Shown: piece after piece, positions 10,598 to 56,999 of the stretch
Layout of the letters: each line of letters opens with the position of its first letter
Position numbering within the stretch: the stretch's first letter is position 1
Source: a virus
IMG/VR virus record: IMGVR_UViG_3300025840_003125
Length of the DNA: 64,000 bases
Direction: 5' to 3' (one strand)
Notes under the pieces: generated by a model
Seen by the model: only the letters and a program-made list of their open reading frames with translations
What the model was told of the DNA's origin: nothing
The model's database searches: none
Program-made: the position numbers and the translations under genes

Positions 10598-10855
10598 ATG
10601 CCAAAGAAGCATAAGAAAATAACTATATCCTCTCTAAAAAAGAAGGCACCTAAAGTACCTCCTTTCACGTGTATAAAGATTGACAATGTTATAAGTAAAT
10701 TAGAGAAGATAGTAGATAAGAAAAAAGCGTTAGATAAGAAACAATTAAAAGAATTAGTAAAGAAACTTGAGGTATTAAGGGACGCCAATGATAAACTACG
10801 TGATAGTGGGATATATTGGTATGAAAAATTAAAACACTTATTAAAAACGAGGTAG
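10598..10855 (+). CDS. Hypothetical basic coiled-coil protein
   Basis: 85 aa, strong SD TAGGAGGT. Confidence 0.7.
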   Translation: MPKKHKKITISSLKKKAPKVPPFTCIKIDNVISKLEKIVDKKKALDKKQLKELVKKLEVLRDANDKLRDSGIYWYEKLKHLLKTR

Positions 10856-39153: not shown

Positions 39154-39868
39154 ATAATAACCTCGCTATTTCTTCATGCCCTTTTTTACTAGGGTGTTCA
39201 TCAATTTTACTTATAGTATATCCATTTATATCTAAAAATTTAAAAAAATGTAATTTTATTAAAATATTTAAATTATTAGCTTTTGAATATCCTATAAAAT
39301 TATCAATATCAATAAATTTTTCGTATTCATCTATTAATGTTCTTATGTATCTTCTAATAATTTTTTGATTTTTTAAAGGTTCATATCTAGGCAAACCTTT
39401 AAGTTGATCTGCTTCTGATCTTTTAAGTCCTGCTAACCAAGGTTCAAACAAACCAATCATTTGAAATTGTTTGTAAGGTATGTTATACCTTTTACATACA
39501 TTTTGTAAAGTTATGTAACCTAGTAATGATTCTCTTACCCAACCATAAATATCGCCAGGTCTTTTTATTCTACTATTAAACCATTTTGATATAGGCATAC
39601 CATTCTGCCAATCATCTCTATTTGATTGTGACCATGCAGCCATAACAAGACCTATCTCATCTTTAGGTGTTCTTTCTATTGTGTCTAATAAAGTTTGCAA
39701 TATATACCTGTTACCTGCACCGTTAGTTGCTAAATTAATTACTTCCATATTCAATTTCTTTCCAAGTAGTTCAGGCCATTTTGACCACGAAGTATCCATA
39801 TCAGGATACGCTGAAGAAATATATTCTTTAGCTGTATAACTACAACCACTTACTATTAATTTTTTCAT
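39137..39868 (-). CDS. SGNH/GDSL hydrolase-like protein
   Basis: GCSYT; NLA..GAGN; DEHPS..GH. Confidence 0.7.
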   Translation of the reverse strand: MKKLIVSGCSYTAKEYISSAYPDMDTSWSKWPELLGKKLNMEVINLATNGAGNRYILQTLLDTIERTPKDEIGLVMAAWSQSNRDDWQNGMPISKWFNSRIKRPGDIYGWVRESLLGYITLQNVCKRYNIPYKQFQMIGLFEPWLAGLKRSEADQLKGLPRYEPLKNQKIIRRYIRTLIDEYEKFIDIDNFIGYSKANNLNILIKLHFFKFLDINGYTISKIDEHPSKKGHEEIARLLYDRLG

Positions 39869-40700
39869 ATAATATTTCCGCTATTCTCACTTGTCCTAGT
39901 GCGTTAGGGTGTCTGTCCAATTCAGATACTCTATGTTTTTCTTTTAATAGACTTTCAATAGTGTATCCTTCTAATTTTTGATCTGTGGGCCAACCTAAAA
40001 AATTATCTTTAAACTTATATCTGCTACTTTTTAAAGTTTTTAAATAAGTCATCATCATGGTATCACGTACATATTCTATTCCATGTTTTTGCATTTCCGC
40101 AAATTGTTGAAATTTATCTAACTTTGCTTGCATGTCATTTTCATTTAAAGCTGAATAATCTATACCGTTTGTTATTTCCCAAATATGACCTCTAATTAAA
40201 CTTATCATTTGAACTTGATTGTAAAAAAGTGCTTGATCGGCAACTCTAGTTTTTTGTTGTTCCATTAAATTTTGAAACGCATATTGGTATCTTATAGTTT
40301 TATTAATCCAATATTTTATATCTCCTTTTGTATCCGTTCTAATATTATTCCAATTTGTAACATTTTTTATTATATCTCTATACTTATTGTTAGCAAAGGC
40401 TTTATCATTTCTCGTACCTGTCCAACTAGATGTTTTTTCCCAATCACGTCTTGGTGCTGATGACCATGCAGCTATAACATGACCTACTTTATTAATATCA
40501 ATTTCTGTTAAATAATCTGATAAAGAACTATAGATATATTCATTTCCCATTCCTGACTTGCAAAGATTAACTGGTTCCATATTCATTTTCTCTGCTAAAA
40601 TTTCAGGCCATTTAAGCCACGTAGTATCCATTGAGGGATGTTGCATAGAAATAAAATGAGGATCACCCCAACTACAACCACTAACTACAAGTTTCTTCAT
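39840..40700 (-). CDS. SGNH/GDSL hydrolase-like protein (paralog)
   Basis: GCSWG; NL..SGMGN; DRHPN..G. Confidence 0.7.
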   Translation of the reverse strand: MKKLVVSGCSWGDPHFISMQHPSMDTTWLKWPEILAEKMNMEPVNLCKSGMGNEYIYSSLSDYLTEIDINKVGHVIAAWSSAPRRDWEKTSSWTGTRNDKAFANNKYRDIIKNVTNWNNIRTDTKGDIKYWINKTIRYQYAFQNLMEQQKTRVADQALFYNQVQMISLIRGHIWEITNGIDYSALNENDMQAKLDKFQQFAEMQKHGIEYVRDTMMMTYLKTLKSSRYKFKDNFLGWPTDQKLEGYTIESLLKEKHRVSELDRHPNALGQVRIAEILYEKINSKWL

Positions 40701-41071
40701 ACTTTATTTTTTACTATTGATTTACCTTTTTCATCTAAATGATGTTCTATTTTTATATTATCATCTGGTCTAATTAAACAATGATACAGACAATTTTTAG
40801 GCACTTTACTATGATCGCCTGCCTCACCGTCTTTCATAATTTGTTCAAACTCTCTCCATTCATCTGACAATACTATTTCATCTATGTTTTCTGCCTCACT
40901 TACTTTACTTACTTTTAACATTTTTTGAAATAATGGTGTGCTTAATGTCCATTCTTGGTCGCACCAACAACAAGGTAATAGATGACCTCTATTACTCATA
41001 GCCATTTGCATTTTGCCGTTCATACATTGAGCAACAAATTTACCTTCTAGTTTATCTTTTTTATCTGACAT
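40697..41071 (-). CDS. Stand-alone SPASM/twitch-like Fe-S protein (paralog of 7974)
   Basis: C...GHLLPCCWCD...I..S.EW..F...C...C. Confidence 0.6.
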   Translation of the reverse strand: MSDKKDKLEGKFVAQCMNGKMQMAMSNRGHLLPCCWCDQEWTLSTPLFQKMLKVSKVSEAENIDEIVLSDEWREFEQIMKDGEAGDHSKVPKNCLYHCLIRPDDNIKIEHHLDEKGKSIVKNKV

Positions 41072-41717
41072 TAGGTCTTACGTATCCTTTATATCCTAAA
41101 TTGTATTCTTTTGATTGAGGTCTTAATGGGTCATCTTCTCCCATCCACCTTGACGAGTGTAACACTATGAACATTAAACCCTCATCTATTGCCATTTGTT
41201 TCGCCTTTTCTAAATTGTGTTCATTGTAACTAAACACTATAAACTGCCAAGATGGCGTTTGTTTTAAGTGTTTCTTTGCTTCTAACATAACTTCATATAA
41301 TTTTTTACCGTCTTGGTTAACACGATACATGTTACTTTCTTCAGGTAAACCATCTATTGCAAATATCCATTTTGCTTTAGGGTGTGCCTTAAACGCTTGT
41401 ACGTACCAACTTTTAGATTTGGCAGATGAGGCATTATGTACTGTAACTTGTATATCTTTATTATACAGGTACTCTAATATCTCAACAAACTTTGGATGAT
41501 GTACAGGATCAGATAACTGACCACAAAAATTAAATGATGAAAAATAATCAGATAACTTTCTTATCTCGTCCATTGTAGCATCCCGACCATAAACTTTTCT
41601 GCCTTCAAGTGTAAAGTTAGTTTGTCTTTGACATCTCATACACTCTAAAGGACACCTATTGCTTATGTCAATATTTATTCCTTTCTTTGATCTTCTATAA
41701 AATGCTATATCACTCAT
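41061..41717 (-). CDS. Radical SAM protein (paralog of 7219)
   Basis: CPLECMRC; FCGQLSDP; FAIDGL; WQFIVFSYNEH. Confidence 0.88.
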   Translation of the reverse strand: MSDIAFYRRSKKGINIDISNRCPLECMRCQRQTNFTLEGRKVYGRDATMDEIRKLSDYFSSFNFCGQLSDPVHHPKFVEILEYLYNKDIQVTVHNASSAKSKSWYVQAFKAHPKAKWIFAIDGLPEESNMYRVNQDGKKLYEVMLEAKKHLKQTPSWQFIVFSYNEHNLEKAKQMAIDEGLMFIVLHSSRWMGEDDPLRPQSKEYNLGYKGYVRPNVR

Positions 41718-42577
41718 CTTAAATGTTTTAGTAAATTTTCTATTTTATCTTTTTGTTCAGTTAAACATTTTGCAGGTCTTTTCCAATATACAGGTCCACC
41801 ATCTTTAATAGATTTATCTCTTAAATAAATCACTTCTTTTCCTAACCATTTACATTCTTGTATAATTCTAGGTGCAGGATCAAAGTTAGGTTTAGTGTAA
41901 ACATAAGTGTCAAATAAACCTAATAGATTTTTAACAGGTACGAATACATGATTATGTTTTTGACTTATGTACTTATCTTTGTATGCTATGATACCATGTG
42001 ACGTATAATTTTTTATATGTTTTTCTACTTCTCTATAATATGTTTTATTTGTTCCTAAGAATAGATATTTAAATTGTATGTTATCTTCTATAGGTTTGTA
42101 TATACTAAAGTTTATTATTTTTTCAAATTGTTCGCCTACACCATTTACATATACCTCATGGTCGCATAAGTCAATTACTTCTTTGGGTTCATAAAAATCT
42201 AGTGCGATAGGATATTCTTTAACATGGTTTTCTGAATATACAGATATAAGTTTATTACTAAACAAACTGTGTAATGTTAATTTTTGTTCTTCAGTATAAC
42301 TATTGTAATCAAGGTATGCAAGTGTTAACATACTTCTACCCATAATCAAAGTTACGTCATCTGACCGTGGCATATAGTCATTAAACACTATGTTTTCAAA
42401 CTTTGTATAACACTCATTTATTGCGTCAATGTAATCTTGTATTATGTGTTTTTTATTGGGTATAACAATCAGTTTGGCACTTATACCTAGGTCGTTGAGA
42501 AAACAACAATGTTCATAACTGTAATGAAACAGACCATCACCTGGTTTACTTGTACATACTATATTTACATTTTTCAT
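41714..42577 (-). CDS. Hypothetical protein, possibly a degenerate GT-B glycosyltransferase
   Basis: C-terminal DPAPRIIQEC..LGKEV resembles the GT4 E-x7-E region. Confidence 0.4.
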   Translation of the reverse strand: MKNVNIVCTSKPGDGLFHYSYEHCCFLNDLGISAKLIVIPNKKHIIQDYIDAINECYTKFENIVFNDYMPRSDDVTLIMGRSMLTLAYLDYNSYTEEQKLTLHSLFSNKLISVYSENHVKEYPIALDFYEPKEVIDLCDHEVYVNGVGEQFEKIINFSIYKPIEDNIQFKYLFLGTNKTYYREVEKHIKNYTSHGIIAYKDKYISQKHNHVFVPVKNLLGLFDTYVYTKPNFDPAPRIIQECKWLGKEVIYLRDKSIKDGGPVYWKRPAKCLTEQKDKIENLLKHLR

Positions 42578-42582: not shown

Positions 42583-42611
42583 ATTATAACATATTTATGT
42601 ATAAATATCAA
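42583..42611 (-). promoter_or_regulatory. sigma70 promoter TTGATA-N17-TATAAT (extended -10) overlapping divergent late promoters
   Basis: -35 at 42606-42611, -10 at 42583-42588; spacer contains CATAAATA (-, 42592-42599) and most of TATAAATA (+, 42600-42607). Confidence 0.75.
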
Positions 42612-42644
42612 TAGAGGGTAGAGTAGAGAATTAAGGAATGAAGC

Positions 42645-44495
42645 TTGAAAAAGGTATATTTTACTCAAATAAACAATCTAATTGCTGACGCTATCTTTTT
42701 ACCGTTAAGTGTTGCTTACATATGGGAATATTGTAAGACACAGGTAACAGATTGGGAATTAGGAGACATCTTCTTTGAAAGAGAGTCCGTAGAGGACTAT
42801 CTAAAAAAGATTGACAATCCTGACATCTTAGCATTATCAACATACGTGTGGAACTGGGACATAACTTGTCAGTTAGCAAGAGCAGTCAAAAAGAAATATC
42901 CTAATTGCAAAATAGTAATGGGTGGACCACAAGTGCCATTCAAACAAAGTTGGTTAGAAGACAATACTGACCTATGCGATATTATAGTTACATATGCAGG
43001 TGAAAGAGCATTTGCTGAAATACTAAAAGGTAACTATACGTACCCAGGCGTAATGACAAAAGACTCTTATACGCCACCTAAACCAGATAAAGAATTAAAC
43101 GACATACCAAGTCCTTATTTAAGTGGGTTGATGGATAGTCTTATGCAACCTGGTAAACAATATAGTGCTATCATAGAAACTAATAGAGGTTGTCCATATA
43201 GTTGTTCTTTCTGCGATCAACAAGATTTATATTACAATAAGATTGCCATGTTTGATTATGATAGAGTAATAGGTGAGATAGATTGGATTGTAAAAAATAA
43301 AATTGACTTCTTATACTTTGGTGATAGTAATGTAGGTATGTTCAATAGAGATGTTGACTTTATAAGACACATCGCTAAACGTAGAAATGAAACTGGTTAT
43401 CCTAGACAGATAGATTATAGTACAGCAAAACAACAACCAAAACGTATTGTTGAGTTGGGTGAAATACTTAATAAAGAAGCAAAGATAAGACGTGGTGTTA
43501 CTATTGCTTTACAAAGTATGAATCCTAAAACATTAAAAGCAATCAAAAGAATTAATCTTGCAAATGAAAAATTAGAACAAATTGTTGGCGACTATAATAA
43601 AGCAGGTGTTGATAATTATTGTGAACTAATTGTAGGTTTACCTGAAGAAACATTAGACACATGGATTGAAGGTATAGGTAAGATACTAGAATTAGGAAGT
43701 GACCATGCGTTAACAGTACACCCTTTGAGTATTGTACCTAATACTCCTTTTTCTGATCCTGAATATAAAAACAAATACGGATACAAATATACAAAGACAG
43801 CTGCACCTGCAGGTGGTAATACTTATCCTAAAGATAGTAATGGTGAGATTGATTATGTTGCATATGAAAGTAAAAGTTTTAGTAAACAAGATTATATAGA
43901 CATGTATTTTTTCGCTAAAGGTCTTGTGATACCTCATCACTATCATGGTGTTAGTCAAGTTGCAGCCACATATCTTAACCGAGAACACAATGTACCATTT
44001 ATAGATTTTTATAAAAAACTATTTGAGTATAGTAGAAATGGTAATGGCATACTAAATGAAGAATATAAAAATCACACAAACAGTTTGAAACAAAGTTTAT
44101 TTGAAGATAAGACATGGGGTAGAACTATTGAAGGTGGCGATGATTTTCATATACAAGATAATGGTGCAACAGCTTCTTTCTTATATAAAAACATAGACAA
44201 GGTACATAAAGAAGTTATAGACATATGTAAGAAAGAATATAATGTAGATGTATCAGAAGCGTGCCAGTTTAACAAGCACATTATTGACACATACGAAAGA
44301 GATGATACAGAAAAACAATTTGATAAGAATTGGTATAGTTGGTTCTACGATAACAAACCATTAGTCGCTGTTAATAATATCGTATCTGTAGCCGTTTATA
44401 AATATAAAGATATAGTAGACCACTCAAAGCATTTATTCTGGTGGGGAAGAAAAGCCAAGAGATGTTTTTTGAAATCAAAGGAGATTATGTTATGA
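42645..44495 (+). CDS. Cobalamin-binding radical SAM enzyme (class B type)
   Basis: B12 domain LPL.VAY..PDILALSTYVWN..IVMGGPQ..GE; PSPYL; ETNRGCPYSCSFC; DSNVG; LQS; ELIVGLPEET. Confidence 0.9.
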   Translation: MKKVYFTQINNLIADAIFLPLSVAYIWEYCKTQVTDWELGDIFFERESVEDYLKKIDNPDILALSTYVWNWDITCQLARAVKKKYPNCKIVMGGPQVPFKQSWLEDNTDLCDIIVTYAGERAFAEILKGNYTYPGVMTKDSYTPPKPDKELNDIPSPYLSGLMDSLMQPGKQYSAIIETNRGCPYSCSFCDQQDLYYNKIAMFDYDRVIGEIDWIVKNKIDFLYFGDSNVGMFNRDVDFIRHIAKRRNETGYPRQIDYSTAKQQPKRIVELGEILNKEAKIRRGVTIALQSMNPKTLKAIKRINLANEKLEQIVGDYNKAGVDNYCELIVGLPEETLDTWIEGIGKILELGSDHALTVHPLSIVPNTPFSDPEYKNKYGYKYTKTAAPAGGNTYPKDSNGEIDYVAYESKSFSKQDYIDMYFFAKGLVIPHHYHGVSQVAATYLNREHNVPFIDFYKKLFEYSRNGNGILNEEYKNHTNSLKQSLFEDKTWGRTIEGGDDFHIQDNGATASFLYKNIDKVHKEVIDICKKEYNVDVSEACQFNKHIIDTYERDDTEKQFDKNWYSWFYDNKPLVAVNNIVSVAVYKYKDIVDHSKHLFWWGRKAKRCFLKSKEIML

Positions 44496-45076
44496 TAAGA
44501 GTTGGCGATATAATACCAGATATAAAAACTATGCACAAAGATAGTGCAGCCACAAACTGGTATTCTACACACGAATTATTTAAAGATAAAAAGATATTAC
44601 TAATAGGATTGCCTGGCGTATTTCTTGTTGAGTATGCAGCCACACATTTAAAAGCATACGACTTCTATTACAGCAAGATAAGAGAACTAGGTATTGATGA
44701 AGTATATTTTACAAGTGTTGATAATTGTTACGTACAAAACGCATATCACAAATCAGAAAATTTATCGTACCTAAAAAACTTACCTGACCCTAATGGTGAT
44801 TGGGCCACATCTATAGGTATGTTAGAGAGTATGAGTAAAGAAGGATTAGGAAATTGTAGTCATAGATACGCTATGATTATAGACAATCTAATTATGAAAC
44901 ATTGTAAGTATGAAGACTTTACACACAACCCTATGACGTGTTTTCAAGTATCAGACGCTGATACAATGATTAAGTATTTAGAAATTATACAAACAAATTA
45001 TGAAAGGTTTAATGATGACGCCAGAGATAAGGTTGACGTCCTTGGAAGAAACAAGATCAGCACCGTATTGTCGTGA
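44492..45076 (+). CDS. Peroxiredoxin (Prx5-type) homolog lacking the peroxidatic Cys
   Basis: VGD.IP; LF..KK; PGVFLVEY in place of PGAFTPTC; GIDEVY..SV; LPD.NG; S.RYAMIID; VSDA.TM..YL. Confidence 0.8.
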   Translation: MIRVGDIIPDIKTMHKDSAATNWYSTHELFKDKKILLIGLPGVFLVEYAATHLKAYDFYYSKIRELGIDEVYFTSVDNCYVQNAYHKSENLSYLKNLPDPNGDWATSIGMLESMSKEGLGNCSHRYAMIIDNLIMKHCKYEDFTHNPMTCFQVSDADTMIKYLEIIQTNYERFNDDARDKVDVLGRNKISTVLS

Positions 45077-45656
45077 GCTAAAAACTCTTTGGTACGATAG
45101 AGAATATCTATTAAATCATTTAGAGAATATAGACGAAAACAATTGGTATCTGTTTGATTGTGGTCATATAAGATGGACTGTACAAGAGGCATTTAATGCT
45201 AGACGAGAATGTAAAAACTATCCTTTTAGTGAGTTTCATTATGAGTTGATAAATCTTTTTACACCTGCAATATCTTTTGATACTGTATTGTACACACAAA
45301 CAGCAATAGGTGGTGCACCACCACACCAAGATAGAAACAGACCTACTGCTTTAAACTTTGCAATACGAGGTGAGTTTAGTGATACAAGTCCACAAGTTTT
45401 CTATGATAGTTTTGATAGAAGTACAGAAAAGTATAGAATGACATATGAGAAAAATGATATTACAAATGAATTTGCACCTTGGATATTTAAAGGTCCTGAA
45501 ATACATGGTGTAGAAAACAAGACAGAAAAAAATAGAATTATTATAACTTGTGCTTGGCGACATAATAGTTATGAAGATATAGAAAAAAGATTACTAGATG
45601 GTACGTTAGTAAACTGGGAACAGAATGAAAAAAACAAAAGGATAAAATTTATATGA
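45012..45656 (+). CDS. 2OG-Fe(II) oxygenase-like (DSBH) protein
   Basis: HQD...ALNF...HGVEN....RII. Confidence 0.65.
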   Translation: MMTPEIRLTSLEETRSAPYCRELKTLWYDREYLLNHLENIDENNWYLFDCGHIRWTVQEAFNARRECKNYPFSEFHYELINLFTPAISFDTVLYTQTAIGGAPPHQDRNRPTALNFAIRGEFSDTSPQVFYDSFDRSTEKYRMTYEKNDITNEFAPWIFKGPEIHGVENKTEKNRIIITCAWRHNSYEDIEKRLLDGTLVNWEQNEKNKRIKFI

Positions 45657-46306
45657 GCAGTGTAGATAGAACAAACAAAGCGCTTCAAAGACTTTCTACT
45701 ATGGGTGATTGGTTGCAAATGAAACAACACATTAATACTAGACAGATAATGAAAGACCTTGAGCCATACAAAGACTCATGGAAACCTTACAATTTAAGAA
45801 ACCCAAATAACAGGTGGGGATTAAGTGTAACAAGTTTAGATGGCAAGTTAAGTGGTATACCTGATTTAGATAGTTTACTACAATACAATAAGATACATGG
45901 TACTAGTATTACAAATCATCACATAAAAGAATACACCGAAGTATATGATAACTCAAAAGAATTACAGAAACTCATTGAACCATGGAAACCTTGGTTAGGG
46001 AGATGTCACTTTCTAAAACTAAACACAGGTGGTTATTTTCCTGAACACTATGATGTAAACAAATTAGAATATGGTTATGATGAAATAAGATTTATTGCTT
46101 TCATTAACAGGTGTGATAAAAAAGATTTAAAGTTTATATACGAGGATACAGTTAGAGATGTTAAAGATGGCCAGATGTTTTTCTTTAACGCAAACAAAAG
46201 ACATTCAGTTTTTAGTACATCGGACGATATTATTATGTTAGTATTTTGTATGAAGTTTGATGAACATTTATTTGAAAGATTAATAGAACAATATAGGTAT
46301 GCGTAA
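45653..46306 (+). CDS. Asp/Asn beta-hydroxylase-like 2OG-Fe(II) oxygenase
   Basis: GGYFPEHYD; FFFNANKRHSVF. Confidence 0.7.
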   Translation: MSSVDRTNKALQRLSTMGDWLQMKQHINTRQIMKDLEPYKDSWKPYNLRNPNNRWGLSVTSLDGKLSGIPDLDSLLQYNKIHGTSITNHHIKEYTEVYDNSKELQKLIEPWKPWLGRCHFLKLNTGGYFPEHYDVNKLEYGYDEIRFIAFINRCDKKDLKFIYEDTVRDVKDGQMFFFNANKRHSVFSTSDDIIMLVFCMKFDEHLFERLIEQYRYA

Positions 46307-46839
46307 TGTGGTATCATAAAAAATTTAAATTACAATACGATAAAAACGTTTTCAATGAGATAATTGAATATGCTGAAAGAGCAACATGGAGACAAGGGTA
46401 CGATCAAAATGGTTTACTTTGGAATGTTGAAGAACTACCTTTAAACCCTAAACAGTTTCCTATACTAAATGAATTGTATGAAGGTCTAAATACAGAATTT
46501 AAAAGACCATCATTTTTTATTAGTAATGTGAAACCTGGTGGGTTAGTAAACCATATTGACCACAACAAATGGGGCAATCTAGGTATACCTTTGAAAGGTG
46601 ATTTTGAAAATACACCTCAATACTTTTACGATCAATTCAATCATCCAGTAGAGTCATTCGTAGTTGATAGTCCTGTTATATTCAATACACGTATGTTACA
46701 CGCTGTACCTAGACAGTTAACTGATACAGGACCTAGATGGGTATTGATGATGGATTTATTTGAGTGGGTTGATAAATTGTTTGCAAAGATTGACAACAAA
46801 ACTATATGGACAGACACAAAGAATTTCAAAAATGCGTAA
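46306..46839 (+). CDS. 2OG-Fe(II) oxygenase-like protein
   Basis: PGG..NHID; PVIFNT..LHAV; RWVL. Confidence 0.7.
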   Translation: MWYHKKFKLQYDKNVFNEIIEYAERATWRQGYDQNGLLWNVEELPLNPKQFPILNELYEGLNTEFKRPSFFISNVKPGGLVNHIDHNKWGNLGIPLKGDFENTPQYFYDQFNHPVESFVVDSPVIFNTRMLHAVPRQLTDTGPRWVLMMDLFEWVDKLFAKIDNKTIWTDTKNFKNA

Positions 46840-48496
46840 CTTCTATTTTCTACAGATACCTTTAGGTACAGACGCAGCCTATCTGCCACAAGCAGTAGGT
46901 ACGATCTGGTCTTATTGTAATCAGTTTGAAGAAGTACGAAAGAAATATAAACTTGCAGGTGTATGGTGGAACAAAGAGATTGATATAGTTGAACCTGATT
47001 TTATAGCTGCAAGTTGTTATATGTGGAACTGGAAAATAACATATGACGCATTGAAAGAAATAAAAAAGAAGTATCCTAAATGTAGAATAGTTGTAGGTGG
47101 ACCTGAACCACAATATACATCAGAATGGTGTAAAAAACATCCTGAAATAGACGCTGTGTTAGCATACTATGGTGAAGAAACAATGAGAAGATTACTAGTA
47201 GATGATGAACTTAACATACCAGGTGTTGTTACAAAAGACTTTAACAATGCAGCCGAGGCAGAATATGCCGACCCTAAAATGATACCTAGTCCTTATCTTA
47301 ATGGTTTCTTTGATAGTTTACTAGAAGGCAACACACAAAAAGTCAGAGCAATCTTTGAAGGCAATAGAGGTTGTCCTTATACTTGTTCTTTCTGTGACAT
47401 AGGCCATAAGAAATATACAAAGATACAAATGTTTGAAACAGAAAAATGTTTAAAAGAACTAAAATGGATGTGTGATAGAAATGTAACTGCTATAGATGTA
47501 GCAGATAGTAACTTTGGTATATTTCCTAGAGATGAAAAACTTGTAGATTTTGTAGTAGAACAAAAGAAGGCAGGTAAATTCAATGGTAGATTTATGCCTA
47601 CGTGGGCTAAGACACATGGTGAAAAGATAATGAAGTTAGCAAAGAAATTGCAAGACGCAAATGTAGATGACACTTTTGGTTTTAGTTTACAATCTACAAA
47701 TCCTGAAACTTTAGATAATGTCAATAGAAGAAATGCGTTTGATATTAAGAGTTTCAAACCTATCATAAAGAATTTAAAAGACAAAGGTGTTTCATCATAT
47801 ACAGAATTAATCTTTCCTTTGCCTGGTGATAGTTTAGAAACATTTAAGTATGGTCTACACGAAATAGTTGACATGCCTGCACCATTTGATATGATACAGA
47901 TTAATACTTTAAGTAGATTAAGTAATACAGAATTTAACACAGGTTTTCCTGAAATGATATGGCAAAATATTAAAGGTACTGCAAAGCCATATAACAATGA
48001 TGTAATAGATGAGATTGCTGTTGCAACAGATAAGATGACAAGAGATCAAGTCTTTGAAGGTTTCTTTTATAGTAGAAGTTTCTTAATACCAATGTACTGG
48101 TATGGTCTAGCAAAGTATCATGCTGATTGTTATTATGAAATTAATGGTAATAGAAGTGAATTATTTAAAGACATATATTCAAAACTATTTAAAAACAAAA
48201 CATTTATGAAACACAAACTAGATGTTAGAGAACATTATTTTAAAGCACTTAATGAGTACAAAGACATTGGATATAAGATACTTAATAAAGATATAAATTA
48301 TTATACAGATACAGCTTATTCTCACTTGTTCTATACCGAGAATAATATATTTGATGTGTTCAAAGAAATGTATCCAGAATATGATGAGATTATTGATCGC
48401 AACAAAAAAGATTTCAGACCTATTGACGATAAGATGGAATGGCTCAGAGATATACACGTTAGAGGTAGATTTAGTGAGTCTTGGAGAATAAAATGA
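46832..48496 (+). CDS. Cobalamin-binding radical SAM enzyme (second copy)
   Basis: YLP.AVG.IW; SCYMWN; IVVGGPE; GEE; PSPYL; EGNRGCPYTCSFC; DSNFG; SLQS; ELIFPLPG. Confidence 0.9.
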   Translation: MRNFYFLQIPLGTDAAYLPQAVGTIWSYCNQFEEVRKKYKLAGVWWNKEIDIVEPDFIAASCYMWNWKITYDALKEIKKKYPKCRIVVGGPEPQYTSEWCKKHPEIDAVLAYYGEETMRRLLVDDELNIPGVVTKDFNNAAEAEYADPKMIPSPYLNGFFDSLLEGNTQKVRAIFEGNRGCPYTCSFCDIGHKKYTKIQMFETEKCLKELKWMCDRNVTAIDVADSNFGIFPRDEKLVDFVVEQKKAGKFNGRFMPTWAKTHGEKIMKLAKKLQDANVDDTFGFSLQSTNPETLDNVNRRNAFDIKSFKPIIKNLKDKGVSSYTELIFPLPGDSLETFKYGLHEIVDMPAPFDMIQINTLSRLSNTEFNTGFPEMIWQNIKGTAKPYNNDVIDEIAVATDKMTRDQVFEGFFYSRSFLIPMYWYGLAKYHADCYYEINGNRSELFKDIYSKLFKNKTFMKHKLDVREHYFKALNEYKDIGYKILNKDINYYTDTAYSHLFYTENNIFDVFKEMYPEYDEIIDRNKKDFRPIDDKMEWLRDIHVRGRFSESWRIK

Positions 48497-49398
48497 TAAA
48501 CAAATTAATATGGAATAAAGTAGAAGAATTATTTTACTGGAACATATCAGTAGATAGCCCTATCAATCAATTACCTTTTACAATGGATTTTATTCTTGCT
48601 TGTCAAAAAGAATTTTCTATGACAGTAAGAGATAAAGAATACCCTATACATCTAGGTGGTATAATGGATTGGCACGATAAAACAATGGGCGATTTCGTAA
48701 AAGAAATAGATAAACAATATCAAAGTAATTACTTTGTAGCAGAAAATGGCACAAGTACAACAGGTGTCGTAGGTGAAATAAAAGATGTAAACGATAAACC
48801 TATTACAAACAAATGGAATATAAGAGGTGAAGCTCTTGTTAAAAGATTACAAGCAATGCAAAAAGAAAGACCTAATTTAACAATATTAGATATGGGTTGT
48901 GGTGTAAATGAATATAAGAAACATTTAAATAATGTTACAGGCGTTGATCCATATAGAAAAGAAGCAGACATAATCTGTAGTCAAGCAGATTTTAAACCTG
49001 CTGATGATATAAAATGGGATGTAATTATATGTTTTGGTCCTCAAAACTGGTATACGTATGATGAACAATATAGAAACTTTATGACGTTAAAGAATTGTTT
49101 AGCACCTAGTGGTCTATTATTATGGTCACATGTTCATAATTACTATAAAGTATTTCAACCAGATCACCCACATGGTCATACTTGGATACATGGCGATTTA
49201 GAACATGCACAAAAAAATAGTGCGTTTTATTTTTATGATAGAAACTGGAAGTACACATGGTACTTTAACTGGACTGAACATGCTGTAAATACACTTGCAG
49301 GTCATGTAGGTTTAAAAATAAACAAAGTTGATTACGACCATTGTAATTTATACAGACCACCTATGTACAGAATATTTACGGAGATGACACATGGTTGA
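48493..49398 (+). CDS. Class I SAM methyltransferase with N-terminal ACP-like domain
   Basis: ILDMGCG; GVDPY; DVIICFG; L...G. N-terminus resembles acyl carrier protein helices but lacks the DS site. Confidence 0.7.
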   Translation: MINKLIWNKVEELFYWNISVDSPINQLPFTMDFILACQKEFSMTVRDKEYPIHLGGIMDWHDKTMGDFVKEIDKQYQSNYFVAENGTSTTGVVGEIKDVNDKPITNKWNIRGEALVKRLQAMQKERPNLTILDMGCGVNEYKKHLNNVTGVDPYRKEADIICSQADFKPADDIKWDVIICFGPQNWYTYDEQYRNFMTLKNCLAPSGLLLWSHVHNYYKVFQPDHPHGHTWIHGDLEHAQKNSAFYFYDRNWKYTWYFNWTEHAVNTLAGHVGLKINKVDYDHCNLYRPPMYRIFTEMTHG

Positions 49399-49999
49399 AC
49401 AAGGTAACTTCTTTGTCAAATGTCATAACATTTATTACAATCAACAATGGTTGATAGATGTATTAGATAGTTTGAAACCTAGTGATTGGGTAAACGGAGT
49501 TAGTAGAACAGGCGTAGCATGGAATGTTAGTGAGTGTAGAAATATACCATATGAGAATATGTGGAAAGATATTGTAGAGAATATGAATTTAGATCAAGTC
49601 GGTAGTACAGAAAGAACATTCCATGGTGAAAAACCATGGGCATTCTTTTCTAAATTACCACCAGGTGGTATAAATTTACACTACGACCACAGACGTTGGG
49701 GTGCAATATTATTTCCTGTAAGAGGTAAGTTTGAACTCACACCTCAAATATTTGCAACAGAAAACTATACAGAAATAGAAAGATTTAATTTTGAAAAAAG
49801 TAAGATACATGATAATGGTACACCTGTATTTTTTGATAGCAGAGTTTTACATGCTGTACCTACACCTTTAGATTTAGAGGAAGAAAGAGTTGTATTTTCT
49901 GTTAACATACACTCACATCCTACAGAAATGTTTAAGAAAGCTGTTGATGGTACATGGTTAAATAAGAATACAGAAAACATAGGTGTATCTAATGACTAA
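49391..49999 (+). CDS. 2OG-Fe(II) oxygenase-like protein
   Basis: PPGGINLHYD; PVFFDS.VLHAV; RVVFSV. Confidence 0.7.
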   Translation: MVEQGNFFVKCHNIYYNQQWLIDVLDSLKPSDWVNGVSRTGVAWNVSECRNIPYENMWKDIVENMNLDQVGSTERTFHGEKPWAFFSKLPPGGINLHYDHRRWGAILFPVRGKFELTPQIFATENYTEIERFNFEKSKIHDNGTPVFFDSRVLHAVPTPLDLEEERVVFSVNIHSHPTEMFKKAVDGTWLNKNTENIGVSND

Positions 50000-50558
50000 T
50001 TTCTATTCTATACAAGCAGATAAAATGAAATTTAATTTAGATATGTTAGTTGATCTATACAAAACAGTAGATCAAACAAAGTGGGTACATAGACAAGATA
50101 AGTTACCACAGTATTGGCCTATTGATGAAAACAGCACGTTTGATCGTAACCATGAATTTTACAGACTACTAAAAGAAAACATAAATGCTGATATAGATGA
50201 AACGAGAGTATATTTCAGTAGAGTACATCCAGGTGGTATACCTAACCATTGGGATTTTGAAAATTTTACTAAACTACAATTTCCTGTTATATGTGATGAA
50301 GAAGATAACGATTGGTCAAAGTCGCCTGTTATCTTTATAGATCAATTTGACCAAGTTGTAGAAAGAGTAGAACATACGAATAATACGCCTATAATTTATA
50401 GTGCGAATTACATGCACGGAACAATCAAATCTTTAGATAATACAAACGATAGAATTACTTTTGTTGTTGATATTAAGTATTGGTTTGCCAGAGTTAGATC
50501 AAAATATAACAACGGTACTTTGTTTACAAACAACAAAGCGTTTTGGAGTATGGCATGA
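49992..50558 (+). CDS. 2OG-Fe(II) oxygenase-like protein
   Basis: HPGGIPNHWD; MHGT; RITF. Confidence 0.68.
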   Translation: MTNFYSIQADKMKFNLDMLVDLYKTVDQTKWVHRQDKLPQYWPIDENSTFDRNHEFYRLLKENINADIDETRVYFSRVHPGGIPNHWDFENFTKLQFPVICDEEDNDWSKSPVIFIDQFDQVVERVEHTNNTPIIYSANYMHGTIKSLDNTNDRITFVVDIKYWFARVRSKYNNGTLFTNNKAFWSMA

Positions 50559-51211
50559 ACAGGTGGGATATAACTGTTAAACAAAGTAACTATGATTTCA
50601 ATCCTTTTAGAGAAAGCGATCATGGTAAATACTTTAAGACAGTTACAAACATTTATGAGGACTGGTCAAAGGAATTAGAATATGCAAACAAGCAACAATA
50701 TGATTTCTATTGGCCTAGTCCTGTAAAACCAGGTGGCGATCATTTTGATTATGAGTATGAAAATAAACTAGTAGAAGATTGGGGTATACCTAAAGACTTT
50801 GTAATCTACAGAATGTGGACTGCAACAAAGAAAGAGTGTCCTATATTGTGTGGTCTAGCAGACAAGTTAGGTTTAGAAGACGCACAGGTAAATATACAAA
50901 CTCAAACTACAGGTATGATGTTACATTTACATATTGATAGTTTAACAGGTTTAAGAAAAGAGAGAAAAGATCAATCATCAAGCAGAGCAACTGATCCTGA
51001 ATGGGGTAGAGTTTTTGTTATGTTAGAAGATTGGAAACCAGGTCATATTATTCAATTTGGGAATACATATGTACCACCATGGAAAGCAGGTGATGTAGTA
51101 TGGTTTGATTGGGCAAACATACCACATAGTACTGCTAACACAGGACCATGGCCTAGAACAATTGCAAAAATAACAGGTAAACAAACGCCTAAATATAAAA
51201 AACTACTATAG
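50555..51211 (+). CDS. 2OG-Fe(II) oxygenase-like protein
   Basis: LHID; MLEDWKPG; WKAGD; PHSTAN.G..PR...ITG. Confidence 0.7.
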   Translation: MNRWDITVKQSNYDFNPFRESDHGKYFKTVTNIYEDWSKELEYANKQQYDFYWPSPVKPGGDHFDYEYENKLVEDWGIPKDFVIYRMWTATKKECPILCGLADKLGLEDAQVNIQTQTTGMMLHLHIDSLTGLRKERKDQSSSRATDPEWGRVFVMLEDWKPGHIIQFGNTYVPPWKAGDVVWFDWANIPHSTANTGPWPRTIAKITGKQTPKYKKLL

Positions 51212-51219
51212 GATAAATT

Positions 51220-52860
51220 ATGAGATTATTGATTATATTATTATTTTTATTTGTATCTACAAAAACTTTCGCTGAAGACAATCGTTTTGATTGTAGTTGG
51301 GATGATGACCCACCTTGTATAGTGATTCCTGTAGGTAGCTTAAATAATTCAAACGCATTAGGTGATAGAATAACACCTACAACAACAATTACAAAAACAG
51401 AAATAAGAGAACACAATCTAATTGATTTACCAAGTGTTTTAAATTACGTATCAACACTAGACGTTACACAATCAGGACCAAAAGGACAAACTGGTTCTGT
51501 ATTTTTAAGAGGTACAAACTCTAATCACACTTTAGTTTTATTGAATGGTATACCTATCAATGATACATCAACACCTACAGGTGCATTTGACGTTGGGCAA
51601 GACTTTATGTTTAACGTTGTACAAATAAATGTATATAAAGGTGGTGCAGGTGCTCATTGGGGTGCAGACGCTGTAGGTGGTGCAATTAATTTTATAACAA
51701 CTGTAGATTACGATAAAAGATATAATGTATCAGGTAATGGTAATGATAAAACTATAAGTGGTAATTATTATACTAGATTAAATGACTTTGATATATCTGT
51801 TTCAGCAGGTGAACATGAGTCTAAAAATGTTTCTGCTTTATCAGGTGCTGATGAAAAAGACGGTACAAAAAATCAGACTATAGGTGTCAATGTAAGTAAA
51901 TGGTATGATATGATACATTGGCGAGCATCTTGGTTTACAAGAAATACGTTTACAGATATTGATGGTCATAGTCTTGCTGTACAAGATGACAAATGGTCTG
52001 ATAATAGTTTTTATGCTTTTCAAACAGGTATAGATTACTTTAATAATAGTTTAACTTTTCATACACACGAATATGAAAGAATTTATGATGACGCTAATTA
52101 TGATAGTCAAAATTGGTCGTTAAGAGGTGTTCATCAAAGACAAAATTGGGGAATAGGTTTTGATTATAAACATGATGAAAATTATGGTAAATCTGCATGG
52201 TCAGAAAACACAGGTAGAAATCATGGCATGGGATACTTCTTTAATTTTTCATACAACATATTATCATATCATCATAGATTTGATGAAGACCATGAAACTT
52301 ATAAAATAGGATTCTTACAAGAATTAGACGATGGTTTAAGTATAAGTGGTAGTCACTCAACGTCATATAAAGATAAAACATTATACAGCGATGTAGTATA
52401 TGGTGACTCACAAGAGGTAACGTTAACTAAAAATAACTTTGCTACTACTATCTTTCAAAATGATATAGGTGATCTGAATACAAATGGTGTAGAGATGTCA
52501 TATAATACAGGTGATTGGAAACTTTTTGCAAGTAATTTAACAAGTAAAACAAAAGATGTATTATCATTAAGAAGACCAGAATGGTCACTTGGTTTTATTC
52601 ACAATAAGAAGTTTGAAAATAACTTTACTTTAACTACTAACTACAAATACAAAGGTAAACATTTAGATATACATAACTCAAACTGGTCTACAATATCAAT
52701 GCCAGAAACACATTTAGTTGATTTAAATCTAGGTTATAACTATCATGGATTTAATTTTGGTGTAAGTCTAAACAATCTATTGAATGAGAAGTATGAATCA
52801 CCTCATGGTTTCTCACAAGAAGGTAGAAAGTTTACTTTAGGTTTTAACAAATCATTTTAA
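51220..52860 (+). CDS. TonB-dependent outer-membrane receptor, BtuB-like
   Basis: Signal peptide; plug QSGPKGQTGSVFLRGTNSNHTLVLLNGIPIND; GADAVGGAINFIT; NLLNEKYE...GR; C-terminal Phe. Confidence 0.88.
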   Translation: MRLLIILLFLFVSTKTFAEDNRFDCSWDDDPPCIVIPVGSLNNSNALGDRITPTTTITKTEIREHNLIDLPSVLNYVSTLDVTQSGPKGQTGSVFLRGTNSNHTLVLLNGIPINDTSTPTGAFDVGQDFMFNVVQINVYKGGAGAHWGADAVGGAINFITTVDYDKRYNVSGNGNDKTISGNYYTRLNDFDISVSAGEHESKNVSALSGADEKDGTKNQTIGVNVSKWYDMIHWRASWFTRNTFTDIDGHSLAVQDDKWSDNSFYAFQTGIDYFNNSLTFHTHEYERIYDDANYDSQNWSLRGVHQRQNWGIGFDYKHDENYGKSAWSENTGRNHGMGYFFNFSYNILSYHHRFDEDHETYKIGFLQELDDGLSISGSHSTSYKDKTLYSDVVYGDSQEVTLTKNNFATTIFQNDIGDLNTNGVEMSYNTGDWKLFASNLTSKTKDVLSLRRPEWSLGFIHNKKFENNFTLTTNYKYKGKHLDIHNSNWSTISMPETHLVDLNLGYNYHGFNFGVSLNNLLNEKYESPHGFSQEGRKFTLGFNKSF

Positions 52861-54146
52861 TGTACGATACAATATTTTGGGCTATAATAGGAACTTTAAG
52901 TGGTGTCATCTTTGGTGTAATACCAGGTGCAGGACCTTTTGTTGCAACGGCAACTCTATATCCTTTTCTAACACATATAGAGCCTGTCAATGTTATGATG
53001 TATTACGTAACAGTTTTGATTGCAACTAATTATACAAATAGTGTAACTGCTATTCTGTATGGTATACCTGGTGACGCCACAGCAATGAGTACTGCAAGAT
53101 ATGGTCACAAATTATTCTTAAAAGGTTTTGGTAATCTAGCAGTTGCTTCTAACGCTGTAAGTAGTACAGTAGGAGTTATATTTGCTTTTACTGTTTTTAT
53201 TTTTGTATTGCCTTGGATCATAGAAGTTTTTAGATTTTATAATAGTGTACTACAGACAGTTATTGTTGCAGCTGCAATTATAATGATTACACTATTGACA
53301 AAACAAAATAAATTGTTTACAATAATACTGTTTTTATTCGGAGGCATGATTGCAAAAGTAGGTATAGACCCTATTACATTTGATAGTTTTTTGACTTTCA
53401 ATAACTCATACCTCGCAATCGGAATACCTTTTGCAAGTGTGATGATAGGATTATACATAGTGCCAGAACTAACAAAGTTAAATAGTTTTAAAGTAGAAGT
53501 ACCTAAACGTATAAATACTTTTACAGTTGGTAAAGATACAACTACGCCTACACTCATAGGAAGTTTTGTAGGATTTTGGTGTGGTCTTATACCAGGTGTA
53601 ACAAATATTCTTGGCAGTTATGCAAGTGCAAATATTGTTAAAAGGTTTTTCAAAAAACCTGTACTTAAAAGCATAGCAGCCGCAGAGGCAGCAAATAATA
53701 GTGGCGCCTTATCATCACTATTGCCTTTGCTTATACTAGCGATACCCATTACGGGAAGTGAAGTTTTGATTTATTATATTATGTTAGAAGATGGTTTCGT
53801 TTTCAACGCTCAAAATACAGTCAAACATTTAGAAAGTATAATTTATATTATACCCTTTGTTACTGCCTTTTGTTTGGGGTTAAGCTGGTACGGTTTCAAT
53901 CTGTTAGGTAAGATTGCATATCTCTATAAACAATATAGAACAATTGCAAACATCTTACTTCTCTCAATAATTAGCATTGCAAGTATATCAATATTCGCCA
54001 TACGTGAATGGATGATTATCTGTATATTTGTTTTGTCTATAATCGGGTTCTTAATTAGACGCTGGGATACTAGTCCTATTATTTACGGATACTTTCTAAG
54101 CGATCTATTTTACGAAAATTTAATTAGAACATTAATAATCTTATAG
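52860..54146 (+). CDS. tctA: Tripartite tricarboxylate transporter large subunit (TctA family)
   Basis: G...GVIPGAG; AILYGIPGD; G.IPG; AAEAANNSG; LL.LAIP; polytopic. Confidence 0.85.
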   Translation: MYDTIFWAIIGTLSGVIFGVIPGAGPFVATATLYPFLTHIEPVNVMMYYVTVLIATNYTNSVTAILYGIPGDATAMSTARYGHKLFLKGFGNLAVASNAVSSTVGVIFAFTVFIFVLPWIIEVFRFYNSVLQTVIVAAAIIMITLLTKQNKLFTIILFLFGGMIAKVGIDPITFDSFLTFNNSYLAIGIPFASVMIGLYIVPELTKLNSFKVEVPKRINTFTVGKDTTTPTLIGSFVGFWCGLIPGVTNILGSYASANIVKRFFKKPVLKSIAAAEAANNSGALSSLLPLLILAIPITGSEVLIYYIMLEDGFVFNAQNTVKHLESIIYIIPFVTAFCLGLSWYGFNLLGKIAYLYKQYRTIANILLLSIISIASISIFAIREWMIICIFVLSIIGFLIRRWDTSPIIYGYFLSDLFYENLIRTLIIL

Positions 54147-54157
54147 GAGATAAAAAA

Positions 54158-54934
54158 ATGAAAAAAATAATGTTAATAATAATGAGTATGTTGTTCAGTA
54201 CAATGGCATATGCTCAAGTACAAATAATCAATCCTGGTTCACAAGAAGGTGTCTTCAGACAAATTCTTTCTACAATAGGTGATACAACTGACCATAACTT
54301 TGTTCAGGCAGATAATCCAGTTACTGCATACACTTATATTGAAGGTGAATCTAATAAACCTATCTTAACGATATGGTCTAGTGAATGGCCAGGTGACGAT
54401 AGTTTGAAAAGTCCGAAAGTATCTAAAGATAACATTGTAGCTTTAATGACATATGAAACTCTTATGTGTAGTAGAGCATACAATTCACTTGAAGATATGG
54501 GTGGACAAACTGTTAAGATTGCGACATGGGGATCAGAACCAGTTGCAAAATTCTTAAAAAATTTAGGTGCAAAATATGATGTAAATTTTGTAGTTGTACC
54601 TTATTCTGGCAGCGGAAGTACTACTAAAGGTTATGTTGGCAAAGACGCCGATACTGTCTTTACAATTACTTCACGTCAAGCCGCATTAGAGGAAGATGGT
54701 TCTAAATGTATTGCCTTTTCAGAAAAAGGTGAATTAGGTTTTAGATTTGTTGACGCAATCATCACCATTAATGCTAACTACGCCTTAACAAATGAATTAC
54801 GTTCTGCTGTAACAAACCTCTCTACAACTACCGAGTGGAATAGTAAATTCAAAGGCTCTGTAACTTATGTTGGAAATGGTTCTAATCAAACTATAGAAAT
54901 GTTTGAAGAGGCTGTTGCTAACTTTAGTAAGTAA
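54158..54934 (+). CDS. Periplasmic substrate-binding protein, divergent TctC/Bug-like
   Basis: Signal peptide; VVPYSGSG..(x)..G.D resembles TctC VPYxG; follows tctA. Confidence 0.6.
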   Translation: MKKIMLIIMSMLFSTMAYAQVQIINPGSQEGVFRQILSTIGDTTDHNFVQADNPVTAYTYIEGESNKPILTIWSSEWPGDDSLKSPKVSKDNIVALMTYETLMCSRAYNSLEDMGGQTVKIATWGSEPVAKFLKNLGAKYDVNFVVVPYSGSGSTTKGYVGKDADTVFTITSRQAALEEDGSKCIAFSEKGELGFRFVDAIITINANYALTNELRSAVTNLSTTTEWNSKFKGSVTYVGNGSNQTIEMFEEAVANFSK

Positions 54935-56252
54935 TACAATTATGTAAGAGCTGGTTGGCATCCTTATAGTTGTCAAACAGCTCTTGCTGATCTCTACCAG
55001 TTATGTTAAGATTTACATTAAACTTTTTGTTTTGTAGATTTTGAAATTCAGGTATATTCATACCGACTTCTAACTTCTTATTCAGATAATTTAGATATTG
55101 TTCAACGATTTCTATATTCTTTATTTCTTTAATTACACCAGGTTTTAATTGAGTACAACCCCATAGTAGATGATTTGTAATTTCTGGTTCTTTGTTGTTA
55201 CCTATATTGTTAAATATATTATTGCCAGGTAACTTATCTAATATATTAATAAACTGACCTATACGTGTATTAAAGTCTATTGCAATTAATTTTTTACCTG
55301 ATATGTGAAAGTCAGGACCTGCAAAGTACATATCTTTTACTTTTAGTTTATCAACTATAGTCTGTACGAAACCATACATTATTCTATGTTGCTCTTCATC
55401 TACTTCACTCACAGGTATAGACCATACTGCCATATCTTTTGCGATATCACTTTTCTTACTGATTGAATGTTGATCTATAGGATTTTTATGAAAGTCTAAT
55501 ATGTCGCCATACTTTACTTTAGCATTTCTTACATAGAATAAACAATCTACTTTACCATCTTTAACATAACCATAAGGTGATATAGATGGCTCTTCAGACC
55601 AATAGTATTCTTGTGCCATAATTTTACAAGGTACATTATTAAAGTTTTCATTTTGAATACCTGTTTTATTGATTTCAAAAAAATCATTATGATAATTTAG
55701 TTTACTTAAATGATCTAAAAAATGATGTTTGTTATTCCATCTTCTATACTCTATTATAGGTGTATTCTGATCTGATTTAGGATAGAAAGAATTACTACCA
55801 GTACCGATGTCAGGTTTTGTAAAAAACTCATTGCCATCAAATACATCTAGTTGACTATGAAAGGTAGGTGTAATACTTTTAGGTACGTTATGTTGTAGTC
55901 CTATTACTCTACAAAAATCATCAAGTTTCTGTTTATTACTAAACACTTCAGCTGCAAAGGCAGACATATTGTTTATACCGTAATAACTTTCTAATTGTGC
56001 TTGAATAGGAAATAAATTTTCTGATACACAAAACACTTTATCACAAGATATAATTTGTTTTGTGATTTCTATTATATCAAACTTCTTTGATACAACTAAA
56101 TCGTCTATGTGTTTTATGAAAGGTTTGTAGCGATCGCCTGACTTGTTTGGCACCACATCACAAACCAATGTGATGTGGTTATTTAAATTCGCTGTGATAA
56201 GACCTTCGGTCTTGTTAAGACTACGCTTATGTGATAATATAACTACATTCAT
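54924..56252 (-). CDS. ATP-grasp fold ligase
   Basis: VSENL; NKQK..F...G..VP; FTKPDIGTGS; MAQEY; IDFNTRIG. Confidence 0.75.
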   Translation of the reverse strand: MNVVILSHKRSLNKTEGLITANLNNHITLVCDVVPNKSGDRYKPFIKHIDDLVVSKKFDIIEITKQIISCDKVFCVSENLFPIQAQLESYYGINNMSAFAAEVFSNKQKLDDFCRVIGLQHNVPKSITPTFHSQLDVFDGNEFFTKPDIGTGSNSFYPKSDQNTPIIEYRRWNNKHHFLDHLSKLNYHNDFFEINKTGIQNENFNNVPCKIMAQEYYWSEEPSISPYGYVKDGKVDCLFYVRNAKVKYGDILDFHKNPIDQHSISKKSDIAKDMAVWSIPVSEVDEEQHRIMYGFVQTIVDKLKVKDMYFAGPDFHISGKKLIAIDFNTRIGQFINILDKLPGNNIFNNIGNNKEPEITNHLLWGCTQLKPGVIKEIKNIEIVEQYLNYLNKKLEVGMNIPEFQNLQNKKFNVNLNITGRDQQELFDNYKDANQLLHNCITY

Positions 56253-56283: not shown

Positions 56284-56634
56284 CTATTCAGCTGATGTAT
56301 CAAAATGATTCAAAACTCTTTCATCCGTAACAACCGCTCCTAATTCTTCAGAATTTATAAGATCATCAACAACTGGTAAAGCAGCTGCTTTTTCTTTCCA
56401 CTCTTTGTATAAAGCTTCAGTTTCAAATTCTTTTACAATTAAAACTGATTTCTTATCATCATTTAAAGTAGCATACTTATCTATTACATATAGTGCTTCG
56501 TTGTTAATGTGTTGGTTTATGTCATCTTCGCTTATTTCTGTTGATGAACTTTTATTAAAAAATTCCTCTACTGATCCAAACGTTAACGACTCATTTTTAT
56601 TAGTTAATTTCCATTGTTGAATATGTGTTTCCAT
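56284..56634 (-). CDS. Hypothetical acidic protein (paralog of 56634)
   Basis: SVEEFF...L.DDKKSVLIVKEFE....Y.EWK.K...LP. Confidence 0.7.
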   Translation of the reverse strand: METHIQQWKLTNKNESLTFGSVEEFFNKSSSTEISEDDINQHINNEALYVIDKYATLNDDKKSVLIVKEFETEALYKEWKEKAAALPVVDDLINSEELGAVVTDERVLNHFDTSAE

Positions 56635-56999
56635 TAGTTAAACTCCTCTATTGTTTCAGTTTTTCCGTTATCGTTTGTACCCCAAGGTGTTATTTCTGCA
56701 AACAATCCTTCTTGTTCCGATAAATTAAAATCTATATTGGGCAATAAGCTTCTTTTCTTTTTCCATTCGTTATACATTGTAATGTTTTCAAATCTTCTAA
56801 CAATTATAACTGCTTTGTTGTCATTTGTTAAGACACCCATTTTTTCATATATATAAGTTTTATTTACTTCTTCGTGTGCCTTTAAATCTTCTTCATCTGT
56901 AGTTCCAGTATATGCTGAGTCAAAAAATTCATCAACTGACTCATAAGTTTTGTTTGGATCTACTAAATTTTTATATAAAAATTGTATATCTATTGCCAT
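56634..56999 (-). CDS. Hypothetical acidic protein (paralog of 56284)
   Basis: SVDEFF...LTNDNKAVIIVRRFE....Y.EWKKK...LP. Confidence 0.7.
   Translation of the reverse strand: MAIDIQFLYKNLVDPNKTYESVDEFFDSAYTGTTDEEDLKAHEEVNKTYIYEKMGVLTNDNKAVIIVRRFENITMYNEWKKKRSLLPNIDFNLSEQEGLFAEITPWGTNDNGKTETIEEFN

Follow-up and report, generated by a model that had tools for sequence, protein, structure and literature searches.

Pelagimyophages carry a genomic island, named the host recognition cluster, in which radical SAM (S-adenosylmethionine) cassettes and glycosylation genes have been noted and for which modification of the host O-chain has been proposed (PMC7029224). Tripartite tricarboxylate transporters (TTT systems, TctABC) import carboxylates (PMC5812351). 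We analyzed a 64,000-nucleotide stretch of the virus record IMGVR_UViG_3300025840_003125 (hereafter, the window), in which an island at the position of the host recognition cluster, amid baseplate and fiber genes, holds an operon (42645 to 54934, plus strand) that combines two predicted cobalamin (B12)-dependent radical SAM enzymes (rSAMs) with a BtuB-type receptor and a TctA-family membrane protein. In contrast, the published description of the pelagimyophage cluster makes no mention of cobalamin and describes neither a B12 importer nor a TctA/TctC module (PMC7029224).

The reading that we favor, and that we think probable as a whole, divides these genes into three exchangeable modules. In the first, the two B12 radical C-methyltransferases, together with hydroxylases, a methyltransferase, a pseudo-peroxiredoxin (pseudo-Prx), and a putative ATP-grasp ligase, would build one modified molecule; by analogy, the presumed steps would be hydroxylation, O-methylation, extension of methyl groups, and ligation to a presumed product. 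In the second, the BtuB-type receptor, whose family function is well supported, would carry cobalamin over the outer membrane for both rSAMs; in this phage it appears to have been put, without a riboswitch, under a phage late promoter. In the third, TctA and a putative binding protein would bring in a carboxylate that serves the ligase as a precursor. The host would supply the inner membrane step for B12, probably through a DUF6580 protein, and the energy, probably through TolQRA. The preliminary description of this DNA had the phage importing cofactors for its own chemistry; B12 self-provisioning survives from that account, whereas a B12 route made of the receptor and TctA/TctC does not.

Identity of the receptor

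The receptor gene (51220 to 52860, plus strand) encodes a compact protein of 546 amino acids. Its Plug domain scored above the Pfam cutoff, phmmer placed BtuB first (3e-21, with PirA at 5e-5), and the structural model showed a plug and 22 strands, for which BtuB filled the top 12 rows of a Foldseek search. Thus, the BtuB-like plug first noticed in the sequence was recovered by both sequence and fold. Like E. coli BtuB (PDB 2GSK/1NQH), the closest match to its plug and 22-strand barrel, the receptor has orthologues under riboswitch control. Unlike E. coli BtuB, to which it is 18% identical, it bears a pair of cysteines (Cys-x-Trp...Pro-Cys) at the position of the TonB box. The receptor is a divergent BtuB subfamily member rather than an equivalog of the E. 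coli type.

Rfam AdoCbl-II riboswitches were found directly upstream of receptor orthologues, among them two at 73% identity. A model built from these riboswitches covered 29 partly redundant phage loci (L080:9895-9975, L045:9835-9913, L037:4634-4714, and 26 more) and 14 SAR11 loci. Among 150 SAR11 genomes, all 24 riboswitches above the cutoff sat just upstream of the receptor, in 24 genomes that were all receptor positive. No riboswitch for the window's own copy emerged from an Rfam search of the window between 38 and 60 kb and of the whole genome. Pelagimyophages have been reported to lack riboswitches (PMC7029224). In four riboswitch-bearing phages (L045, L055, L074, and L080), a thyX-like gene lies directly 3' of btuB, and two receptor-bearing phages carry a permuted tmRNA of the alphaproteobacterial type (L068:9544-9895 and L011:4788-5143).

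Because BtuB is the best match and close orthologues stand behind cobalamin riboswitches in both phages and SAR11, the receptor very likely imports cobalamin, as judged from sequence and the structural model. That it instead serves for iron-siderophore uptake, or for uptake of what the operon itself makes, is highly improbable. The folds of TonB-dependent receptors are all alike (TM-score of 0.74 for PirA versus 0.80 for BtuB), and the phylogenetic tree did not fix the position of E. coli BtuB. However, the tree placed the window receptor in a phage clade that is sister to a SAR11 clade and apart from the siderophore receptors FepA, CirA, and FhuA, and both the riboswitches and the pairing of the receptor with a BtuM-fold protein (see below) speak for cobalamin.

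Association of the receptor with B12-dependent enzymes

In SAR11, the receptor is accessory: 31 of 161 genomes, about one-fifth, carry it, often within glycosylation islands in the order B12-rSAM, receptor, DUF6580. A B12-binding domain was present in 29 of the 31 receptor-positive genomes versus 16 of the 130 receptor-negative ones (Fisher P of 3e-18, not corrected for kinship). The MetH domain was absent from all five SAR11 genomes tested, so that the visible B12 users there are rSAMs. Lack of the receptor in 130 genomes is in line with the idea of a streamlined host that does not keep B12.

Phage loci were counted as clusters at 90% identity. On this basis, a B12-rSAM lay within 6 kb of the receptor in 12 of 17 clusters, so that co-occurrence of the two was seen in phages as well as in SAR11, whereas tctA/C stood beside the receptor in only 2 of 17. 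Two receptor types, 27% identical, were each found next to two different B12-rSAM types. The second type is always paired with DUF6580 and occupies the same slot in sister phages, beside a different B12-rSAM. In smaller phages (L073 and L077-L079; 44 to 52 kb, 71 to 85% complete), btuB directly precedes a 632-amino-acid TokK-like rSAM.

BtuB serves as a phage receptor in enterobacteria, and a phage-borne copy might serve mainly the host, by boosting its B12 enzymes, or competition between phages, by masking host BtuB, its place in the operon reflecting hitchhiking within the island. The lack of an inner membrane carrier in this phage would fit such a role, as would phages in which the receptor adjoins nrdAB or tRNAs with no B12-rSAM near. 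We nevertheless consider it quite unlikely, since adjacency of the receptor to B12-rSAMs of unrelated types recurs independently across several groups of phages and since rSAMs are the visible B12 users of the tested SAR11 genomes without MetH.

A separate TctA/TctC-like module

The TctA-family protein (52860 to 54146, plus strand; 428 amino acids) passed the Pfam cutoff for TctA at 196 bits, as expected from its first description, has both G-rich repeat motifs, and is 24 to 27% identical to SAR11 TctA. The next gene (54158 to 54934, plus strand) encodes a 258-amino-acid protein that had been called a TctC-like binding protein. The protein is secreted and resembles solute-binding proteins, but its likeness to TctC is weak: it belongs to a virus-specific family for which Atlas, PDB, and Pfam gave leads only. 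Its profile matches were weak, a PDB profile search was not significant, hhalign against SAR11 TctC gave a probability of 4%, and the carboxylate-pincer motif P-F-x-A-G-G-x-x-D is altered. No counterpart was found in 161 SAR11 genomes.

Convergent with this gene and overlapping its end is an ATP-grasp ligase-like gene (54924 to 56252, minus strand), which lay outside the span first described. Its top Atlas matches are to ATP-grasp_4 at 0.96; the Pfam match was weak, found in 2 of 26 members, and a PDB profile search was not significant. This gene belongs to the tctA/C unit. Among 17 phage clusters with the TctC-like gene, TctA and ATP-grasp were present in all 17. The oxygenase ox2 (described below) was nearby in 13 of them; 6 had a B12-rSAM and 4 had the receptor. 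Most modules hold a single oxygenase, and no TctB was seen in related loci. The TctA, TctC-like, and ATP-grasp genes are thus a module separate from the receptor. Like TctABC, it joins a TctA with both G-rich repeats to a secreted binding-protein-like gene; unlike TctABC, it has no TctB, its TctA has only 428 residues and its binding protein 258, the latter with an altered pincer, and it is tied to an ATP-grasp gene (PMC5812351).

These counts bear on two proposals made earlier. One was that the receptor and TctA/TctC form a cobalamin route in place of BtuCDF. In its favor, the genome encodes no polytopic membrane protein besides TctA and no DUF6580, the three genes are adjacent, and the carboxylate pincer of the binding protein is altered. 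Even so, TctA and the TctC-like protein are very unlikely to be the inner membrane cobalamin route in this genome: of 17 clusters with tctA/C, 13 have no receptor and 11 no B12-rSAM close by, the receptor occurs without tctA/C in 15 of 17, and sister phages hold a BtuM-fold DUF6580 carrier in the corresponding slot together with a TctA that is 94 to 98% identical.

The other proposal was that TctA/TctC supply citrate or 2-oxoglutarate (2OG) as a co-substrate for six oxygenases. The direction of carboxylate import stands, given the intact TctA family motifs, the known substrates of TTT systems, and the company of ox2 in 13 of 17 clusters. However, the constant partner of tctA/C is the ATP-grasp gene, along with one hydroxylase rather than the oxygenase set; hosts possess their own TctABC, and in bacteria the enzyme set comes with homocitrate-type synthesis genes, which suggest a special precursor. 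Co-substrate supply is accordingly unlikely, and supply of a precursor to the ligase fits tctA/C better.

The inner membrane step and the source of energy

In the whole genome, TctA was the only protein with at least three predicted transmembrane helices, and no TctB, BtuC, or BtuM-like carrier was found; nor was there a TonB_C domain, which was likewise absent from all 161 SAR11 genomes. The absence of TctB, BtuCDF, and TonB/ExbBD noted for the window hence extends genome-wide for TctB, BtuC, a BtuM-like carrier, and TonB_C. BtuF-type binding proteins occurred in only 6 of 161 SAR11 genomes, so that host BtuCDF is unlikely to be the general partner.

DUF6580 was found in 30 of 31 receptor-positive versus 2 of 130 receptor-negative SAR11 genomes. 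It folds as an energy-coupling factor (ECF) S-component: VIA-align ranked BtuM first (Z of 13.8, root mean square deviation of 3.0, 159 residues aligned), tied with other S-components. VIA-align alone made this link; sequence-profile searches gave none, and Foldseek returned no E value below 0.001. Like BtuM of Thiobacillus denitrificans (PDB 8OVV; PMC6072759), DUF6580 of SAR11 and sister phages has the fold of a solitary S-component. It is only 11% identical to BtuM. As for the cobalt-ligating cysteine of BtuM, no cysteine is invariant in DUF6580, and one column has cysteine in half or more of the sequences. In many marine phages (L283-L293 and L317-L360), a stand-alone DUF6580 gene lies among replication genes; of seven near-complete phages with DUF6580, six encode a B12-rSAM elsewhere in the genome. 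A sister-phage copy (L013:7882-8271; 129 amino acids) lacks the first helix and the RxxPHP motif and could be either a truncated protein or a variant with five helices.

Cultured SAR11 have been reported to lack TonB-dependent transporters (PMC3400609), and the sole motor seen in SAR11 was tolQRA(B). At the TonB-box position, phage and SAR11 receptors have in common the motif Cys-x-Trp...Cys. When the receptor N terminus was modeled with SAR11 TolA, the score was 0.53, versus 0.00 for the best control; the runs shared at least 38% of contacts, and the partner pLDDT (predicted local distance difference test) was no lower than 68. Of the 80 solved pairs used for calibration, 7 scored 0.60 or less, as did both mismatches that passed, and resemblance to the known BtuB-TonB structure may play a part in the score. 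The model hints that host TolA may drive the receptor. An OM43 host would not need such a drive.

Several findings weigh against the favored reading. The receptor scored 91.5 bits, far below the NCBIfam BtuB equivalog cutoff of 599.7 bits, and the TctC identity of the 54158 protein is weak. Five of 17 receptor clusters have no nearby B12-rSAM, and the co-occurrence counts lack phylogenetic independence. One sister phage, with a complete genome, carries a B12-rSAM and DUF6580 yet no receptor, and no receptor was found in larger phages with one to three such rSAMs, whose records are 35 to 72% complete. This genome has no DUF6580, and none was found in 24 records, most of them partial, that carry the same type of receptor; the inner membrane step is therefore probably host dependent, and the case for full independence is the weaker for it. 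Where SAR11 genomes have DUF6580, btuB is mostly present already. Finally, SAR11 is a presumed host, and pelagimyophages are only slightly closer to this virus than the OM43 phage Melnitz is.

The enzyme set

Both rSAM genes, rSAM1 (42645 to 44495, plus strand) and rSAM2 (46760 to 48496, plus strand; probable start at ATG 46832), passed the Pfam cutoffs for B12-binding (42.3 and 43.5 bits) and Radical_SAM (44.7 and 54.6 bits), in agreement with their initial assignment. rSAM1 matched TokK at an E value of 1e-66 and CysS at 6e-48 and has both CxxxCxxC and the cobalamin-face motif A-x-S-x-Y-x-W of TokK; rSAM2 matched TokK at 4e-46. Like TokK, ThnK, CysS, and KedN5, the two combine a B12 domain with CxxxCxxC, the TokK A-x-S-x-Y-x-W motif, and D-S-N at the DAN position (PMC9204698). 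Unlike those C-methyltransferases, they are viral, fall far under the KedN5 subfamily cutoff (190 and 162 versus 700 bits), have the Trp that follows the Cys loop replaced, and sit in a locus without carbapenem, nonribosomal peptide synthetase, or polyketide synthase genes.

Between and behind the rSAM genes, all on the plus strand, lie the remaining enzymes. The pseudo-Prx (44492 to 45076) deserves its label: it matches Pfam Redoxin, and the peroxidatic Cys of PxxxTxxC is absent, with Tyr instead in 11 homologues. Six genes had been named oxygenases. Conserved HxD...H motifs, in most cases with an Arg, were found in all, but Pfam matches came from ox2 alone and were sub-threshold, so that ox1 to ox6 are putative Fe(II)/2OG oxygenases at the level of motifs. 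They are ox1 (45000 to 45656; H109-x-D111...H169, R179; no Pfam match), the Asp/Asn beta-hydroxylase-like ox2 (45653 to 46306; weak Cupin_2 and Asp_Arg_Hydrox matches), in which H132-x-D134...H184 is invariant across 46 homologues, ox3 (46306 to 46839; H83-x-D85...H132, R144), ox4 (49391 to 49999; H97-x-D99), which resembles ox3, ox5 (49983 to 50558; H89-x-D91...H145, R157), and ox6 (50543 to 51211; H130-x-D132...H195, R205). The gene at 48481 to 49398, described as a methyltransferase with an acyl carrier protein (ACP) part, matched Methyltransf_23 below the cutoff and retains the call of a SAM methyltransferase; its N-terminal ACP-like region had no DSL-type phosphopantetheine serine in homologues and no PP-binding Pfam match.

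Bacterial copies and the product

The enzyme set also occurs on three large bacterial contigs, with the pseudo-Prx gene included. These copies add homocitrate-synthase-like, homoaconitase-like, MmgE/PrpD, and aminotransferase genes; tctA/C is not present within the loci, and one copy holds an ATP-grasp homologue. None of the four added genes was found in any phage locus searched or in this genome. Since the bacterial copies carry homocitrate-type synthesis genes where phages have tctA/C, phages may take up from outside a carboxylate precursor of the kind that the bacteria synthesize, although the cases are few and only a single bacterial locus reaches beyond the ATP-grasp gene. In the window, a divergent operon (31863 to 42577, minus strand) encodes a carbamoyltransferase, a DegT-like aminotransferase, a radical SAM/SPASM pair, and other genes. 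Since a bacterial copy (L385) likewise has a carbamoyltransferase and rSAMs of a similar kind at its flanks, this operon may be part of the same pathway.

KedN5 offers an analogy for hydroxylation, O-methylation, and methyl extension. The same analogy from CysS suggests that this would be the chemistry of the phage set (PMC9204698). Late-promoter control and the glycosylation genes of the island lead us to favor a product that decorates the virion or cell surface, at about even odds; the main alternative is a diffusible ligated small molecule.

A more far-reaching version of the favored account is that a TonB-free BtuB subfamily, common to marine phages and SAR11 and powered by TolQRA via a disulfide-closed N-terminal box, lets phages feed B12 to a virus-borne cluster that bacteria also have, with a homocitrate-type precursor imported by a two-component TctA/binding-protein transporter rather than made by the phages. 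We hold this version only tentatively and judge it on balance rather doubtful.

Genome setting and transcription

The virus record, of which the window forms part, is 165,693 bp long, T4-like, 33% GC, and rated complete. Its baseplate wedge is nearest to those of Pelagibacter phages Mosig (60%) and HTVC008M (56%), followed by OM43 phage Melnitz (53%), and the host is likely a SAR11 bacterium. The operon consists of 13 plus-strand open reading frames, each overlapping the next or separated from it by at most 11 nucleotides, exactly as laid out in the preliminary description.

A T4-type late promoter, TATAAATA (42600 to 42607, plus strand), lies in the intergenic region 38 nucleotides before rSAM1 and is kept in relatives L001 and L008. 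The number of copies in the window, 13 observed versus 14.8 expected, is not above chance and is uninformative by itself. Over the whole genome, 19 of the 29 copies lie between genes, whereas intergenic DNA makes up about 7% of the genome. The proposed late promoter is therefore upheld by intergenic enrichment and by retention in relatives, not by copy count. Several 2017 metatranscriptome assemblies contain the entire operon. RNA-library contigs start at 42624 to 42678, leftward contigs stop at 42550 to 42561, and the promoter gap is without coverage; these contig ends are a weak hint of transcription. Depth of RNA-library contigs is higher over two small paralogous genes (56284 to 56999, minus strand) whose sequences diverge quickly in islands that are 95% identical elsewhere.

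Elsewhere in the window, a second small island (5569 to 10788) holds radical SAM genes of the twitch type as well as a nitroreductase gene, and a gene at 11031 to 11963 (plus strand) encodes a putative PstS-like phosphate-binding protein.

Significance

A PHROGs search gave no useful match, and in records of cultured phages neither the receptor nor rSAM1 nor TctA had a full-length homologue. Every part of the system belongs to or resembles a known family. Phage nutrient importers are known. Our literature search returned no paper on a phage that imports a coenzyme for its own enzymes, no TonB-less receptor subfamily, and no TctB-less module tied to a ligase.

If the favored reading is true, abundant marine phages would compete for scarce B12 and would run B12 radical chemistry in hosts that mostly have no receptor of their own. 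The presence of the receptor in about one-fifth of SAR11 genomes without TonB makes TonB-independent or TolA-driven import testable, and the bacterial copies offer a handle on the product of the pathway.

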